This document shows, one piece after another, positions 2,222 through 7,545 of a stretch of 38,091 nt of DNA (position 1 is the first letter of the stretch; each line of letters begins with the position of its first letter). The position numbers and the translations under genes are program-made. The notes beneath the pieces are model-generated. The model was not told the origin of the DNA and did not search any database. It worked only from the letters and a program-made list of their open reading frames with translations. This DNA comes from Eubacteriales bacterium (GTDB lineage Bacteria > Bacillota > Clostridia > Oscillospirales > CAG-272): NCBI GenBank assembly GCA_045656965.1, contig JAZOSE010000118.1:1-38091 (forward strand), written 5' to 3'.

Positions 2222-3826
2222 TTACGCATCCTTTTCCGTCTTGGACAACGCCACGGCGGGAGAAGCAGAAAGCACGGGTACGCAGGCGGCGCCCACGTTA
2301 AAGATCATAAGAAATACGAACGCTGCGCTGATGAGCGTCTTATATTCTCCGTGCAGGTGCTGTTTATATAAAATACTGATGGAAATGAGGAATACGATAA
2401 CCATCAAAAGCGCCAAAGCCGCAAATATCAGCATCATGATCTTGGAGATATATGCGCGTCTTTCACTGTTGGCTCCATGCATAAAGAAGGCAACGTTTGC
2501 CTGTAAAAGCGTCAAAGCACAAGCCATCATGCCGAACAAAACGACCGGCAAGAAGGAGAAGAGAGTAGCCATCTTGTGAAGCCCTCCTATTGCCCAAAGC
2601 TCGGAGATCATATCGGCGTTGGTCTTGATGGCAACGGCGTTGTCACCGTCTCGGTGAGGAAGGGAGTAGATGGTGGATAAATTCTCCGAAAGGCGCAAAT
2701 CTGCCTCTTCCTTTTCGGCTTGATGTAGCTCGTCCAAAAGGTCCATCTGTCTTTCTGTGTAAATAAAGGTACTAAAGGCATTGGCACCCATCGATACAGT
2801 CATATGCTTGGTTTTTTCCGGAACACTTGCAAATTTACCTGTAAATGTGCAGTTGACGATGGGAGCAAAGGCAAGAAAGAAGATGCCAAGGGAAAGTGCA
2901 ATGGCAAAAGCACGCTTGATGAGTGTGGAAGCGGAATAACGCACCTTGTAAAAAATAATGCGCGTGAGTGCAACCCATAAAATGACGGGAGCGGAAATCA
3001 GCGTCGGTAAAAGCAACGAGACGGTAATGTCTGTGCCTTGGCTGAAGGCAAAGCGGAAGCTGTTAAAGAGCGCGTATTCACTTACGGTGGGAATGGTCAC
3101 CGCGGCTTGTCCAAGTCCAAAGCTTAGTGCCGCATAGGTGAGCAGCGCCACCATCGGAACAGAAGAAAGCATAACGTAGAGCGCGAATTCCAGCCGTTTC
3201 GACGAGAACTTTGCTATACCAAGCGCACCGAGAAACGCAAAAAACGCAAGGAAGAAGAAAATAATGGTAAACGCCACGTAAAGAACGGCACATACCGCGC
3301 CGATATAGAAGGAGGGACCCAGCGCAATAGCATCGGAGCGCACCGAAAGACGGAGCGTGTAAAGCGCGAAGCTGTGAATGGCGCGCCTCTCGTTTGGCTT
3401 TAGATCCTCATAGTCGGCTTGCTCAATGCCTTTGATGCTTTCGCTTGCCTCTACGTAATGCTCAAAAACGCTATCGTCCTCAAGCTCGCTCTCGGAAAGA
3501 AAGAAAAACGAATCCGTGAAGAGCCCCACGACCTCAAAAACGTTCAGCTTAAAGTCGGCGCCCTCAAAGCGCGCATCGTTATCTGATTCAAGCGGCAGAG
3601 AGATCATTGGCAAAAACGACATCACGACCATAAAGGTGGCAAGAAGAAGCACCAGTCCCTTGGTGATGAGATTCGGGAGAATGGTAAAAATATGCCTTTC
3701 CTTTTTTGCCTTTGGTATCGCTTCATTTTCTGCAACACTTGTTTCCACGGCATAGCCGCAATGAGAGCAAAAACGTGCGCTTGCGGGCAAGCGAGTGCCG
3801 CAGTGTATACAAAACCTGTGACTCAT
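2222..3826 (-). CDS. Multi-pass membrane protein with an N-terminal zinc ribbon, function unknown
   Basis: N-terminus is CIHCGTRLPASARFCSHCG (CxxC-x10-CxxC). It is followed by roughly 10 hydrophobic segments. RBS AAAGGAG precedes the ATG. Confidence 0.7.
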   Translation of the reverse strand: MSHRFCIHCGTRLPASARFCSHCGYAVETSVAENEAIPKAKKERHIFTILPNLITKGLVLLLATFMVVMSFLPMISLPLESDNDARFEGADFKLNVFEVVGLFTDSFFFLSESELEDDSVFEHYVEASESIKGIEQADYEDLKPNERRAIHSFALYTLRLSVRSDAIALGPSFYIGAVCAVLYVAFTIIFFFLAFFAFLGALGIAKFSSKRLEFALYVMLSSVPMVALLTYAALSFGLGQAAVTIPTVSEYALFNSFRFAFSQGTDITVSLLLPTLISAPVILWVALTRIIFYKVRYSASTLIKRAFAIALSLGIFFLAFAPIVNCTFTGKFASVPEKTKHMTVSMGANAFSTFIYTERQMDLLDELHQAEKEEADLRLSENLSTIYSLPHRDGDNAVAIKTNADMISELWAIGGLHKMATLFSFLPVVLFGMMACALTLLQANVAFFMHGANSERRAYISKIMMLIFAALALLMVIVFLISISILYKQHLHGEYKTLISAAFVFLMIFNVGAACVPVLSASPAVALSKTEKDA

Positions 3827-3859
3827 AGGTAAAGTTGCTCCTTTAAGGCGATTGCTATT

Positions 3860-4234
3860 TTATTCTTCGATCTCGATCTCCGCGTCGGGAGCGTTTTCAG
3901 CAATGCTGGCAATGCCACCAAGTGCGCTCGTTTTCGTGGTGTAGCCCTGCGAAATGGATACGACCTCGCCGTTGGAGGCTTGCAGGTTAAAGCGGTATTT
4001 CTCCGCCTTGTCAAGAAACAGAACGAATTTCGGATTTTTGAGCGTTACGATCGGCTCGACCGTTGTGTCCTCAATATGCGAGAGCGCGTTGTTTTTAACG
4101 CTCATAACGCCCTTTTTGCAGTTTTGAAGTGTCGTGTAGGTCTCCGAGGTTGCGATCACACGACCGTTGGTCGCGTAGAGATTAAAATAAAACTGACCGT
4201 CCTTTGAGGACTTTATGATAAATTTAGCTGACAT
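3860..4234 (-). CDS. YegP/DUF1508 (UPF0339) family protein with two tandem repeats
   Basis: Two copies of the YegP pattern: KDGQFYFNLYATNGRVIATSETYTT and KYRFNLQASNGEVVSISQGYTT. Confidence 0.8.
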   Translation of the reverse strand: MSAKFIIKSSKDGQFYFNLYATNGRVIATSETYTTLQNCKKGVMSVKNNALSHIEDTTVEPIVTLKNPKFVLFLDKAEKYRFNLQASNGEVVSISQGYTTKTSALGGIASIAENAPDAEIEIEE

Positions 4235-4269
4235 TTTCGAGCCTCCAATATATATTTATTTACATATTA

Positions 4270-4298
4270 AGTATAACACAATATTTTTTTGTTGTCAA
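4270..4298 (-). promoter_or_regulatory. Putative sigma-A promoter for the YegP-like gene
   Basis: On the minus strand: TTGACA - 17 nt - TATACT, with TG at the extended -10 position. It lies about 30 nt upstream of the RBS and ATG at 4234. Confidence 0.5.
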
Positions 4299-4367
4299 TA
4301 TTACAGGTGTATCAAAAGGCTTCCGTGGTAAAATAATAGGGAATAACTATAAACGGAGGTTAAATTT

Positions 4368-5207
4368 ATGGAAAGAAGCTTGAGTGGAAAAGAAATAAAA
4401 GCGTTTGAAGCCTACCTTTTCGGTGAGGAACGAAGTGCGGCAACCGTAGAAAAATATCTGCGCGACGTGAAATCGCTCCTTGCCTTTCTAAACGGTAAGA
4501 CGTTGACCAAAGCCGTCGTTTTGGAATACAAAAACGGACTCTTGGTTAAATACGCGGTAACAAGCGCCAACTCAATGATTGCGGCAGTAAACGCATTTTT
4601 TCGTTTTCTCGGCTGGCACGAGCTTTGCGTAAAGCAGTTCAAGATCCAGAAATCCGCTTTTGCCACGGAGGAAAAGGAGCTTTCGCGTGAGGAATACCTG
4701 CGTCTTGTGGAAACGGCAAGGCACAGAGGAAACGACAAATTAAGCTTGATCATTCAAACCATATGCGGAACGGGCATTCGTGTCAGCGAACTAAAATATA
4801 TCACCGTTGAATCGGTGGAAAAAGGGGAGGCAACCGTCAACTGTAAGGGGAAAAACAGACGTATTTTCATCGTCTCTGCGTTAAAGCGACGCCTTTTGGA
4901 ATATATAAGGAAGCAAAAAATAAAATCGGGCTCCGTTTTTGTAACGAAAACAGGGAAGTCGGTCAATCGCCATAGCGTCTGGCGCGAAATGAAGAGGCTT
5001 TGCAAGGCAGCAAACGTTTCTCCGAGTAAGGTCTTTCCCCATAATCTTCGACACCTGTTCGCTCGCACCTTTTACGGCATTGAAAAGGATATCGCCAAGC
5101 TTGCCGATATTCTCGGACACGCCAGCATCAATACCACAAGAATTTATATCGTGACCACAGCGGTAGAGCATAAGCGCAAAATGGAAAATATGCGCCTCAT
5201 TGTATAA
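4368..5207 (+). CDS. Tyrosine-type site-specific recombinase (XerC/D-like, small 279-aa form)
   Basis: N-terminal SAM-like core-binding domain. Catalytic motifs: GTGIRVSEL (Arg), HNLRHLFA (H-x-x-R) and LGHASINTTRIY (His/Tyr). RBS ACGGAGG. Confidence 0.9.
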   Translation: MERSLSGKEIKAFEAYLFGEERSAATVEKYLRDVKSLLAFLNGKTLTKAVVLEYKNGLLVKYAVTSANSMIAAVNAFFRFLGWHELCVKQFKIQKSAFATEEKELSREEYLRLVETARHRGNDKLSLIIQTICGTGIRVSELKYITVESVEKGEATVNCKGKNRRIFIVSALKRRLLEYIRKQKIKSGSVFVTKTGKSVNRHSVWREMKRLCKAANVSPSKVFPHNLRHLFARTFYGIEKDIAKLADILGHASINTTRIYIVTTAVEHKRKMENMRLIV

Positions 5208-5239
5208 AGAAAAAAAGACCGACATTCGCCGATCTTGCC

Positions 5240-5257
5240 ACGTAACGTCTGTTATGT
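5240..5257. repeat. Recombinase-type core site A (ACGTAAC-GTCT-GTTATGT)
   Basis: Matches site B at 17 of 18 positions, in direct orientation, 54 bp upstream of site B. Confidence 0.5.
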
Positions 5258-5293
5258 TCTAAGGTTTTATACTAAAGTGAGAAGGGATGTGCT

Positions 5294-5311
5294 ACATAAC
5301 GTCTGTTATGT
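5294..5311. repeat. Core site B (ACATAAC-GTCT-GTTATGT), left inverted repeat of the candidate invertible segment
   Basis: 7-bp perfectly inverted arms around the asymmetric centre GTCT. It is the exact reverse complement of site C. Confidence 0.6.
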
Positions 5312-5373
5312 TGCACATTGCACATGAAATATGCAAAAATCCTTTCTTCACGCGGCAGACAGCAATAAAAAAA

Positions 5374-5438
5374 GCATAGCAACAGAGCCTTTTTCTTGAT
5401 TTTGTTTAAAACTACTAAAAAAGGCTTTTTTTGCTATG
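5374..5438 (+). terminator. Long imperfect hairpin with a T-tract, possibly an insulating terminator inside the cassette
   Basis: Inner stem AGCCTTTTT / AAAAAGGCT (5386-5394 / 5418-5426) is followed by T7. Outer arms GCATAGCAA / TTGCTATG pair around it. The loop is large (23 nt), so terminator function is uncertain. Confidence 0.35.
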
Positions 5439-5490
5439 TATTTTTTTTGTATTATTAAAAATTGTTTTTGTAAAAAATTAAGAAAACCTA

Positions 5491-5519
5491 TTGCTTTTTC
5501 GAAAAAACCGTGCTATAAT
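5491..5519 (+). promoter_or_regulatory. Near-consensus sigma-A promoter inside the cassette, reading toward the tetR-sipW operon
   Basis: TTGCTT (5491-5496) - 17 nt - TATAAT (5514-5519), with TG at -15/-14 (TGcTATAAT). Confidence 0.6.
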
Positions 5520-5543
5520 CTACCTCGCACGGATAAGTTTGAT

Positions 5544-5561
5544 ACATAACAGACGTTATGT
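5544..5561. repeat. Core site C (ACATAAC-AGAC-GTTATGT), right inverted repeat
   Basis: Identical arms to site B. The central 4 nt are the reverse complement of those in site B. Confidence 0.6.
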
Positions 5562-5646
5562 TGCTTAACACTGTTAGCCGCGACGGTGCCACTTTTCAAG
5601 GTAAAATATGTGGTTGTGCATGAAGTCGGCTTTCATTTTTGTCACC

Positions 5647-5666
5647 CTTGTAGCATTTGCTACAAG
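5647..5666. promoter_or_regulatory. Perfect 20-bp palindrome, a candidate operator (for example for the downstream TetR)
   Basis: CTTGTAGCA-TT-TGCTACAAG: 9-bp arms with a 2-nt centre, 127 nt upstream of the TetR start codon. Confidence 0.4.
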
Positions 5667-5743
5667 TGCGCCTTTGTTGAGCAAGATGCTTGAGAAAATG
5701 AGTATATCAAAATGAAGAATTTTCTCAATTATGTTGGCAGCAT

Positions 5744-5772
5744 ATGACTTTTGCGTTTTAAATGTTTATAAT
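5744..5772 (+). promoter_or_regulatory. Possible second (fixed) promoter proximal to tetR
   Basis: ATGACT - 17 nt - TATAAT (5767-5772), about 20 nt upstream of the TetR RBS. Confidence 0.4.
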
Positions 5773-5792
5773 ACTAAAAAAAGGGGAAGGAA

Positions 5793-6431
5793 ATGAAAAG
5801 CGAGTGGGAAATGAGAGAGCTTCTCATCGGTAATACCATACGTTTGATTGCTAAGGGCGGATTTGAAAGTGCTACCACGCGTGCCATTACCCGTGTTGAG
5901 AGCGAGCTTCCCGACATGAAGCTAAACGATGTGTACATATACCGCCTTTTCGGAAGCAAGGAAAATCTTTACCACGCAGCTTTTGAAGATCTGGACAAGG
6001 AGCTTGTTCGTAGCTTAAGCCTTTGTATCGAGGATATCGGCGGCTTTTACGGCAACGTGAAGGAAAAGCTTTATAAGCTTTTTGTAAGAACGTGGCGCTT
6101 TGTTTTGGGCAACGAGGACCGTTGCCGCTGTTATATCAGATATTACTACTCCGTTTATTTCCGCGGTGAATCCTTGCGCCAGCACAATCTGCTTTTTGAT
6201 AGGATCATTGCAGTATTTATGCCGCTTTTTAAGGAAGAGGCAGACGTAAGAAGCATTATGCACAGCGTTTTGACAACGCTTCTCGACTTTGCTGTTCGCG
6301 TGTATAACGGCGACCTTGAGGATAGCGACGTCAACGCGCCTCACGTATTCAACGTCCTTTACTGCGCAATGGTAACTTATTTTAAAGACGGTGTGTTAAC
6401 AAAAGGCGAGGAAGAATCGAGGGTCATATAG
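5793..6431 (+). CDS. TetR/AcrR-family transcriptional regulator
   Basis: N-terminal HTH: LIAKGGFESATTRAITRVESELPDMKLNDVYIYRLFGSKENLYHAAF. All-helical C-terminal part. RBS AAGGGGAAGGA. Confidence 0.85.
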   Translation: MKSEWEMRELLIGNTIRLIAKGGFESATTRAITRVESELPDMKLNDVYIYRLFGSKENLYHAAFEDLDKELVRSLSLCIEDIGGFYGNVKEKLYKLFVRTWRFVLGNEDRCRCYIRYYYSVYFRGESLRQHNLLFDRIIAVFMPLFKEEADVRSIMHSVLTTLLDFAVRVYNGDLEDSDVNAPHVFNVLYCAMVTYFKDGVLTKGEEESRVI

Positions 6432-6450
6432 AAAAATGAGGTAGCTTCCT

Positions 6451-6720
6451 TTGAATGACAACGTGAAAAAAAGAATCATTGAAACGCATTTAAGCTTTAA
6501 TACCAACACCTGCATTTGCTGTGGCGAGGAAATTCCCGAGGGCATACTTGTTTGTCCGGCGTGCGAGCGTGGGGAAGTGCCCTTTGCTTGCCAGCTTTGT
6601 GGAGCGCCTTTGCTTTGCGATGAGCAGATGTGCTCTGAGTGTCAAGCCCGTTGCTCGAAAAAAGGAAGCGGCAACAACAAGAACAAACGCTTTGCATGGT
6701 TTGCAAAGCAAAAGAGGTAA
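6451..6720 (+). CDS. Small Cys-rich (multi zinc-ribbon) protein with a basic tail, function unknown
   Basis: The 89-aa product carries several Cys pairs (CICC, CPAC, CQLC, CSEC) and ends in NKNKRFAWFAKQKR. TTG start with GAGG upstream; the start is uncertain. Confidence 0.6.
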   Translation: MNDNVKKRIIETHLSFNTNTCICCGEEIPEGILVCPACERGEVPFACQLCGAPLLCDEQMCSECQARCSKKGSGNNKNKRFAWFAKQKR

Positions 6721-6723
6721 ATT

Positions 6724-7476
6724 TTGAGCGAAAAATCAAAAAAGATATGTAAAGCCATATTAAGCACCTTGTCGGGATTGCTTTTTACGTTCTCCATTTG
6801 TATTATGGTTTTCACCATCGTTATGGTCGCCACAGTGGATAGAATAGAGAGAACGTTTCTTGGATTTCGGTTTTACATTGTGCAAAGCGATTCCATGAGT
6901 CTTTCGGAAAACAATGCACAGGATACCGTTCATTTTAACGCGGGCGATATCATTTTCTCAAAAAAAGTGAAGGACGCTTCCGCAATAGAGCAAGGAACGG
7001 TCATCTCCTTTATTTCCACGAACAGTGATAGCTATGGCAAGATACTCACTCACAAAATTCGTGACAAAAAGGTGAATAGCAGCGGTGAGTTTTTAGGATA
7101 CGTTACCTATGGCACAAATACGGGAGCTGACGACGAGGCTGTCGTTATGCCCGACCATGTGCTCGGTGAGTACGCAGGAAAGCTTGCGGGCGTTGGAAAT
7201 TTTTTTGCGTTTATGAAGACAACGCCCGGATATCTTCTTTGCATTCTTTCCCCCTTCCTTTTGCTGATCATTTATAACGCAGTAAACGTTATTCGTGCTT
7301 CTAAGGCATACAAGGCAGAGCAAAAGGCTGCTGCGGATGCCGAAAGAGCGGATATTGAAGGAAAGCTGAAGGAAAACGAGACACTCCTTCAAAAGATCGA
7401 GACTCTCAAAAGGGAGCTTGAAGAGAAGCGAGGCGGCGAGCCGTCCGAAACGTCTACCGAGGAAGCCTCGGAATAA
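6724..7476 (+). CDS. sipW: SipW-type (ER/archaeal-type, S26B) signal peptidase I with a C-terminal TM segment and coiled-coil tail
   Basis: N-terminal TM segment. Ser box IVQSDSMS and His box ILTHKI. A second TM segment (YLLCILSPFLLLIIY) is followed by a Lys/Glu-rich tail. TTG start lies 3 nt after the previous stop, with AGAGG as RBS. Confidence 0.8.
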   Translation: MSEKSKKICKAILSTLSGLLFTFSICIMVFTIVMVATVDRIERTFLGFRFYIVQSDSMSLSENNAQDTVHFNAGDIIFSKKVKDASAIEQGTVISFISTNSDSYGKILTHKIRDKKVNSSGEFLGYVTYGTNTGADDEAVVMPDHVLGEYAGKLAGVGNFFAFMKTTPGYLLCILSPFLLLIIYNAVNVIRASKAYKAEQKAAADAERADIEGKLKENETLLQKIETLKRELEEKRGGEPSETSTEEASE

Positions 7477-7545
7477 ATTACTTAGTTCTTTACGCAAAAG
7501 GCGTATCGATATTCGTCAACAAAATACTTATAGGAGGTAAAACAA

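Follow-up and report, generated by a model that had tools for sequence, protein, structure and literature searches.

Introduction

In Escherichia coli, the promoter of type 1 fimbriae lies on fimS, a 314-bp invertible element with 9-bp repeats and the recombinases FimB and FimE. In Clostridioides difficile, the recombinase RecV acts in trans on many unlinked switches with differing repeats, including those of cwpV, flgB, and cmrRST, and several RecV switches regulate after transcription initiation, not by carrying a promoter. The Bacillus tapA-sipW-tasA operon is controlled by the repressors SinR and AbrB. Here we compare with these systems a locus in a 38,091-nt stretch of DNA (positions 1-38,091 of contig JAZOSE010000118.1, assembly GCA_045656965.1; hereafter the window) of an Eubacteriales bacterium of the class Clostridia, in which a tyrosine recombinase gene, three short sites (A, B, and C), and a promoter-bearing segment precede genes for a TetR-like regulator, a SipW-type signal peptidase, and TasA-like proteins. 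We conclude with considerable confidence that this locus is an invertible promoter switch of the fimS type, which probably serves a surface-fibre operon.

Invertible switches of C. difficile have been detected genome-wide (PMC5903667). In the Xer recombination site dif, a 6-bp central region separates two 11-bp half-sites (PMC5357621); dif of Pyrococcus abyssi reads ATTGGATATAA-TCGGCC-TTATATCTAAA (PMC2958812). In the hCom2 survey, inverton group 139, with invertase group 35, is dominated by Clostridia (32 of 33 invertons, 17 strains); no other inverton group there has so strong a link to an adjacent tyrosine-type recombinase, and read-level switching was seen in culture (PMC11892184). Site anatomy, terminators, nested sites, and SipW/TasA cargo are not described for group 139 in that survey (PMC11892184). 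A literature search for the site sequence, or for inversion together with SipW/TasA, found no description of the recombinase-switch family considered here.

Recombination Sites and Their Anatomy

The three sites can be read directly in the window, all on the plus strand, as ACGTAACGTCTGTTATGT (site A, 5240-5257), ACATAACGTCTGTTATGT (site B, 5294-5311), and ACATAACAGACGTTATGT (site C, 5544-5561). Site B, the inner proximal site (ACATAA-CGTCTG-TTATGT), agrees with the family consensus; site C, the distal site, is its exact reverse complement; and site A, the outer proximal site, has the variant outer arm ACGTAA. Thus three copies, in inverted orientation, stand within 322 bp beside the recombinase gene. 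The pattern ACATAACNNNNGTTATGT, with up to two mismatches allowed, has three matches in the 38-kb window against 0.08 expected from shuffled sequence, and these are sites A, B, and C, of which site A has one mismatch. The inverted repeat formed by B and C reaches 21 nt at 95% identity (5291-5311 and 5544-5564).

The same arrangement recurs widely. A locus scan with the recombinase, using one genome per species, returned 77 loci, nearly all from metagenome-assembled genomes of gut and rumen Clostridia, with recombinase identities of 56-76%. About 70 of these species-level loci share a common layout, in which the recombinase gene is always immediately upstream of the sites: ACATAAY-NNNN-RTTATGT follows about 30 bp after its stop codon, and the same site stands inverted 190-255 bp further on. 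The family core is ACATAA-N6-TTATGT, with invariant arms ACATAA and TTATGT around a variable, asymmetric 6-bp centre. The centre is the exact reverse complement of that of the partner site in 72 of 75 pairs, the window's included; it differs between species, and 31 different centres, all asymmetric, occur among the pairs. Because core positions 7 and 12 are variable (Y/R) and in some sites asymmetric, as in ACATAAC-ACCC-ATTATGT of locus L001, the variable centre comprises 6 bp rather than 4. Invariant arms around a centre that is free yet matched to its partner are as expected of the overlap region of a tyrosine recombinase. At L070, where the recombinase is more divergent (61% identity), the arms are altered correspondingly to ACATTA-N6-TAATGT and the layout is unchanged.

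A sequence-only reading of this stretch had already placed the 279-aa recombinase, the three sites, and a near-consensus promoter between B and C, and had noted that C reverse-complements B exactly; on direct reading of the sequence and by domain matching, all of these stand. It had, however, divided each site into 7-bp arms around a 4-bp centre, and this division gives way to the 6-bp centre seen across the family, as in dif.

It should also be noted that the paired centres are not reverse complements at L058 (6897/7171, CTTC vs ACAA) and L064 (6897/7220, CGGC vs TTCG); these pairs may be locked or decayed switches.

Inversion Between Samples

A protein search found P0001, a recombinase that differs from the window's by the single residue A24V; exact look-up of the window's recombinase sequence gave no match. 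P0001 is encoded on three contigs from three samples (L087-L089) that belong to the window's own species. In these contigs, the recombinase DNA is 98.0% identical to that of the window, the interval from the stop codon through site A is identical (50/50 nt), tetR is 97.5% identical, and the right flank after site C is the same. The flanks are thus collinear, whereas the segment of L087 matches the window's, at 91.7%, only as its reverse complement. Accordingly, site A in L087-L089 directly abuts ATCAAACTTATCCGTGCGAGGTAGATTATAGCA, the reverse complement of window positions 5511-5543.

Exact inversion is also seen in the species that encodes the recombinase P0006 (74% identity), for which contigs from six samples are available (L091-L096). 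Across five samples (L091-L095), the flanks are base-identical (2422/2422 and 924/924); of the 242-bp inner segment, three samples have one and the same version and the other two its exact reverse complement (242/242). The sixth, L096, is a 128-kb contig ending on the last base of the inner proximal site, an assembly break typical of a mixed population, and the genome contigs that stop at or inside the switch include L005, L008, L024, L030, L032, L034, L046, and L061. Three further pairs of loci show the same relationship. L007 and L009 have flanks of 98% and 99% identity and segments that match at 43% forward but at 98% when reverse-complemented; for L012 and L014, with collinear flanks, the values are 47 and 99%, and for L015 and L016, also collinear, 51 and 100%. 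Among 96 loci, none had an empty site or an excised form. The earlier proposal that this is a phase-variable promoter (inverton), captured in the window in its ON orientation, is therefore supported by flipped segments in orthologous loci: the opposite orientation, which it had suggested looking for there, occurs in the window's own species, among L091-L095, and in the other near-identical pairs.

In two of the same-species contigs, L087 and L089, which come from different samples, the first base lies exactly 99 nt before the recombinase ATG (about window position 4269), and L088 begins 32 nt upstream of it (its position 1 corresponding to about window position 4336). These starts suggest structural variation, or another break point in assembly, immediately upstream of the region of the recombinase promoter. 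In a separate metagenome scan, only nine loci were obtained, and none of them was from the window's species.

The Recombinase

The presumed invertase is encoded at 4368-5207 on the plus strand. This open reading frame specifies an Xer-like, two-domain tyrosine recombinase of 279 aa, with matches to PF00589 (84 bits, cut-off 27.1) and PF02899. The catalytic residues R138, K160/K162, H225 (in the motif H225-x-x-R228), R228, H251, and Y260 show conservation of at least 97% among 81 relatives. Of the NCBIfam models, XerA, XerC, and XerD fit the protein best, yet each match stays far under the equivalog cut-off (136.9 bits vs 220, 107.9 vs 335, and 106.6 vs 330, respectively); NF007370 and NF007371, the models of FimB/FimE-type invertases, reach only 23.4 and 21.7 bits (cut-offs 221 and 222). 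The nearest solved structures are archaeal XerA (5hxy/4a8e), XerD (1a0p), and XerH (5jjv). By sequence, the recombinase is thus assigned to an Xer-like lineage that presumably acts on dif-like sites, and is neither a FimB/FimE member nor a true XerC, XerD, or XerA orthologue. The lineage is large, as a protein homology search gave at least 8000 homologous recombinases at E <= 1e-40.

Upstream of the recombinase gene, on the minus strand at 2222-4234, the window encodes two proteins, one with DUF1508 in tandem (3860-4234) and one of 534 aa that has a zinc ribbon at its N-terminus (2222-3826); this neighbourhood is retained in L090 and not in most other loci. The P0006 species also encodes, some 760 bp upstream of the Xer-like recombinase and on the other strand (L091-L096, positions 1-742), a large serine recombinase of 501 aa (Resolvase/Recombinase/Zn_ribbon_recom).

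The Invertible Segment and Its Putative Promoter

Sites B and C bound a 232-bp segment (5312-5543) whose putative promoter is directed, in the window, at the downstream operon. This promoter, TTGCTT-17-TGcTATAAT, lies at 5491-5519 on the plus strand and consists of TTGCTT (5491-5496), TG (5511-5512), and TATAAT (5514-5519), with 17-nt spacing and the -10 element 24 nt from site C. The earlier description of it is borne out by relatives, in which the architecture recurs at the same relative position: the extended -10 pattern TTGNNN-N14-16-TGNTANNWT matches in 57 of 73 homologous segments, compared with a mean of 3.4 and a maximum of 10 in dinucleotide shuffles. The match always fires outward and stands 24-49 nt from one of the repeats. 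Homologous segments are found in both orientations, with the promoter directed away from the recombinase in 20 loci, the window included, and toward it in 36.

At L027 (6898-7215), an unusually long segment of 318 bp has two outward-directed extended -10 promoters, one at each end, and its inversion would swap promoters rather than switch between ON and OFF.

Predicted Terminators Outside and Within the Segment

Between site A and the recombinase stop codon, the window has an intrinsic terminator on the minus strand (5208-5236), with a hairpin at 5236-5215 followed by a T-run, which also appears in a generic terminator listing. It folds at -10.7 kcal/mol on the minus strand vs -3.2 on the plus strand, and the corresponding median minimum free energies across the family are -11.0 and -4.1. 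In nearly all loci, the interval from the stop codon to the first site consists of an A-run and then a GC-rich hairpin, which is a hairpin and T-run on the minus strand; a scan of 70 loci found it in all except 9, with quite different stem sequences. The predicted terminator is thus conserved in structure and not in sequence. It would end OFF-state transcripts ahead of the recombinase gene, and it supports the switch model because a flipped promoter is the only plausible source of minus-strand transcription there. The sequence-only reading had the flipped promoter firing antisense into the recombinase gene; this part of it needs revision, as the conserved terminator intervenes.

Within the segment, a long hairpin (5362-5450), preceded by A7 and followed by T8, is likely a two-way terminator, with folding energies of -27.4 kcal/mol (z = -5.0) on the plus strand and -25.1 kcal/mol (z = -4.1) on the minus strand. 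Its earlier description, as a long hairpin with a T-tract upstream of the promoter, agrees with what is found, including strong folding on both strands. An insulating role is suggested: the hairpin likely blocks read-through from the recombinase gene, which would matter most in the OFF state. Across the family, the promoter-distal part of the segments is strongly structured (median -37 kcal/mol), and 45 of 56 segments have a hairpin and T-run motif on one strand or both.

Additional Sites and Nested Inversion

At many loci, the site is repeated directly a third or fourth time, as it is by site A in the window, where a 36-bp spacer (5258-5293) separates sites A and B. In L015, an extra site with a 16-bp spacer is proximal, and in the closely related L010 it is distal with the spacer reverse-complemented. 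Inversion between the outer pair would give exactly this arrangement, which indicates that the extra copies are active in relatives. L087 and L088 have neither site B nor the 36-bp spacer and use the A-type site alone; in all three same-species contigs (L087-L089), it is the sole proximal site. L091 shares the outer-arm variant ACGTAA, and L010-L016 have it in the form GTTACGT, a pattern consistent with outer arms that are never exchanged by inversion. As copies like it take part in inversion in relatives, site A is probably active too.

Further sites of the ACATAA-N6-TTATGT type, with a different centre, stand 0.3-3.4 kb downstream of the main switch at L042 (7446), L045 (7445), and L052 (10464); they could be additional recombination partners or a second switch.

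Leader and Downstream Operon

The leader between the switch and tetR (5562-5792, plus strand) contains a weak hairpin and T-run at about 5620-5640 (-3.2 kcal/mol), a palindrome, CTTGTAGCA-TT-TGCTACAAG (5647-5666), and two promoter-like sites. Of the latter, one overlaps the palindrome (TTGTCA at 5639-5644, 16-nt spacing, TACAAG at 5661-5666), and the other, the third such site counting that of the segment, lies at 5744-5772. The palindrome, in the form TGTAGYR-N2-3-YRCTACA, recurs in the leaders of tetR-type loci only, and together with the overlapping promoter-like site it is a candidate TetR operator and promoter that would provide a second layer of control. A search with Rfam at the gathering threshold over 4000-11200 gave no riboswitch or known leader RNA, only the tRNA mentioned below.

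Five plus-strand genes follow. The TetR-like regulator (5793-6431) matches PF00440 at 21.7 bits, under the cut-off of 24; homologues of 53-60% identity occupy the same position in more than 20 loci, and TetR_N is matched at 3.5e-9 in relatives. A Cys-rich, zinc-ribbon-like protein of 89 aa (6451-6720), with a weak DZR match, has homologues in L022, L023, and L087. The putative SipW-type signal peptidase (6724-7476) has its best matches, both under the cut-offs, in NF046067 (1.4e-20, 73.7 bits vs 190) and TIGR02228 (1.9e-11, 44.1 bits vs 51.85), and its relatives match Peptidase_S26. Next is a 613-aa secreted protein (7546-9387) with a SipW-dependent signal peptide and a TasA/camelysin-like N-terminus (TIGR04088, 25.7 bits, cut-off 19; PF12389, 26.3 bits, cut-off 22.5). 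The last gene encodes a second putative SipW substrate of 162 aa (9423-9911; TIGR04088, 18 bits, just under the cut-off of 19), whose homologues also come after the large protein in L006, L020, and L074.

In nearly all loci, the genes just after the distal site are on the same strand and start 6-280 nt beyond it. TetR, SipW, and TasA-like genes are the commonest cargo; others include BspA-type leucine-rich repeat, DUF285, Listeria-Bacteroides repeat, and pilin-like proteins, and kinase/phosphatase/FHA sets. Because the cargo differs between genomes, the recombinase-switch unit is modular. In the window, the operon is followed by a tRNA and the core genes rpsT, ylxM, ffh, and rpsP, and the locus is therefore chromosomal.

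In addition, a 159-bp tandem repeat (9977-10471; 3.1 copies, 90% identity) abuts and overlaps tRNA-Gly(CCC) at 10446-10519 on the minus strand. Each unit carries the tRNA T-arm-like GGTTCGATTCC, and the repeat might represent remnants of serial integrations at the tRNA.

Proposed Mechanism and Alternative Explanations

The following mechanism is proposed. The Xer-like recombinase would act on the inverted dif-like cores, each with ACATAA/TTATGT arms and a 6-bp asymmetric centre, and because the sites are in inverted orientation, the 232-bp segment flips. In the ON state, as in the window, the putative extended -10 promoter would fire through site C into tetR, the Cys-rich gene, sipW, and the two genes for TasA-like SipW substrates, so that production of a secreted fibre or matrix protein would become phase-variable. 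In the OFF state, as in the other same-species samples, the promoter faces the recombinase gene, and the minus-strand terminator outside site A would end its transcripts; the hairpin of the segment would stop read-through from the recombinase gene ahead of the operon. Both of these roles are suggested by conserved structure. As an extra copy of the site, site A with its spacer would permit an alternative outer inversion and up to four isomers, and the TetR-type palindrome and promoter of the leader probably add a second, ligand-responsive layer of control.

Several points weigh against this mechanism or parts of it. The orientation differences are between samples, not within one clonal population. 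The role of the recombinase as the catalyst is suggested by its strict linkage to the sites, and promoter activity by consensus and conservation; a generic promoter scanner does not list the promoter at 5491-5519, because its -35 element matches at only three of six positions. A simple scan finds a terminator on both strands within the segment in only 10 of 56 relatives, a figure that is a lower bound because the finder is too strict for long or imperfect hairpins (the internal hairpin of the window scored only -5.9), and universality is not claimed for this feature. Furthermore, tetR-type loci have a small hairpin and T-run after the distal site and then one or two promoter-like sites, and for this reason the operon may be only partly driven by the invertible promoter.

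This last point leads to the view that the switch is real and its output is something other than ON/OFF control of tetR-sipW-tasA, such as short orientation-specific RNAs, with transcripts of the promoter terminated on either side, or tuning mainly of recombinase expression, with the operon on its own TetR-controlled promoter. The hairpin and T-run of tetR-type loci, 25-50 nt past the distal site and followed by a palindrome that overlaps a promoter-like site, would fit such an output, as would the two further promoter-like sites before tetR in the window. However, the leader hairpin is weak and is absent from tetR-less loci, where the first gene starts 6-250 nt after the site, and a strong terminator is conserved only on the recombinase side, which therefore marks that direction as OFF and the other as productive. 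We consider a different output unlikely. It is even harder to regard the switch in this genome as a fossil fixed in the ON state and no longer turning over. A single orientation is seen in the one assembled window, and site A has a mismatch; yet the recombinase reading frame is intact and encodes every catalytic residue, sites B and C pair perfectly, same-species contigs have the other orientation, and the ACGTAA outer arm also occurs in a demonstrably switching relative (L091). A fossil is thus very improbable.

Two further explanations concern the sites themselves. Near-palindromic 18-mers upstream of a tetR-like gene could be operators of that repressor instead of recombination sites, a possibility that the earlier reading had raised and disfavoured. 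It can be excluded for practical purposes: the same sites stand directly after the recombinase in at least 30 loci without a downstream tetR, the DNA between them is physically inverted between otherwise identical contigs, and the centre varies by species yet matches its partner, a match that operator binding does not need. In addition, tetR-type loci have a separate conserved palindrome in the leader. The dif-like core geometry and inner arms, the Xer-like recombinase, the extra directly repeated sites, and the presence of the unit before different cargo in different genomes might instead recall attachment sites or module boundaries of a small mobile cassette that mainly inserts and excises, as in Xer-dependent integrative mobile elements (IMEX) or pdif modules. 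We reject this as highly unlikely, since the segment is free of genes and holds just a promoter and a hairpin, nearly all pairs of partner sites are in inverted orientation and inverted sites give inversion, and exact inversion is the only rearrangement seen between identical backgrounds, the excised form being absent from all loci compared. An invertible promoter switch is therefore the explanation that we prefer.

Significance

Overall, recombinase, antisense terminator, dif-like inverted sites, and promoter might together form a portable, Xer/dif-derived phase-variation cassette placed before many surface operons in thousands of gut Clostridia, in which the 31 species-specific centres would serve as orthogonal addresses and versions with three or four sites would have more than two states. 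This wider proposal is put forward tentatively, as a serious possibility rather than as a conclusion. What is new here is the programmable 6-bp centre, the conserved antisense terminator, and the nested sites; the type of switch is itself known and unsurprising in principle.

The analysis pairs presumed recombinases with sites of defined anatomy in a very large set of switches, essentially undescribed so far, from uncultured Clostridia of the gut and rumen, and predicts that TasA/SipW-type fibres and other surface proteins are phase-variable in these anaerobes. Metagenome assembly is affected, as contigs break at the sites, and so is the reading of strain phenotypes. Finally, for a single small recombinase, conserved arms with freely varying 6-bp centres provide a natural series of sites that may be orthogonal to one another and could serve switch engineering in Firmicutes.

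Comparison With Known Systems

The locus exhibits considerable similarity to fimS, in that a short invertible element (232 bp here) lies between short inverted repeats, bears a promoter, putative in the present case, for a surface-fibre operon, and adjoins a tyrosine recombinase gene on the side that the OFF promoter faces. There are also differences: one Xer-like recombinase is present instead of two, the cores of the sites are dif-like (6-6-6) where fimS has 9-bp repeats, a predicted intrinsic terminator, conserved in the family, would shield the recombinase gene, and extra sites permit nested inversions. With the RecV switches, the locus shares its occurrence in Firmicutes, a tyrosine recombinase, short invertible elements upstream of surface or motility operons, and other control borne by the leader. 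Unlike RecV, the recombinase here is linked in cis, one to one, to its switch, and the element carries the putative promoter.

The closest relatives in sequence and structure are the Xer/dif systems, especially those with a single recombinase (XerA, XerH, and XerS), with which the family shares palindromic arms around a 6-bp centre; the inner arms are ACATAA/TTATGT here and ATATAA/TTATAT in dif of P. abyssi, and the recombinase gene adjoins its site as in xerS/difSL. In contrast to Xer/dif, two or three inverted sites lie a few hundred bp apart instead of a single terminus site per replicon, promoter inversion takes the place of dimer resolution, and the recombinase scores far under the XerC, XerD, and XerA equivalog cut-offs.

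As in the Bacillus tapA-sipW-tasA operon, a SipW-type peptidase, putative in the present locus, stands beside proteins with SipW-dependent signals and a camelysin/TasA-like N-terminus (PMC9674648, PMC4292775). In the present locus, control would be by DNA inversion, unlike in Bacillus, and the main substrate has 613 aa with a long unrelated C-terminal part. Among surveyed invertons, those of hCom2 group 139, with inner lengths of 206-228 bp, fit the family described here and may belong to it.

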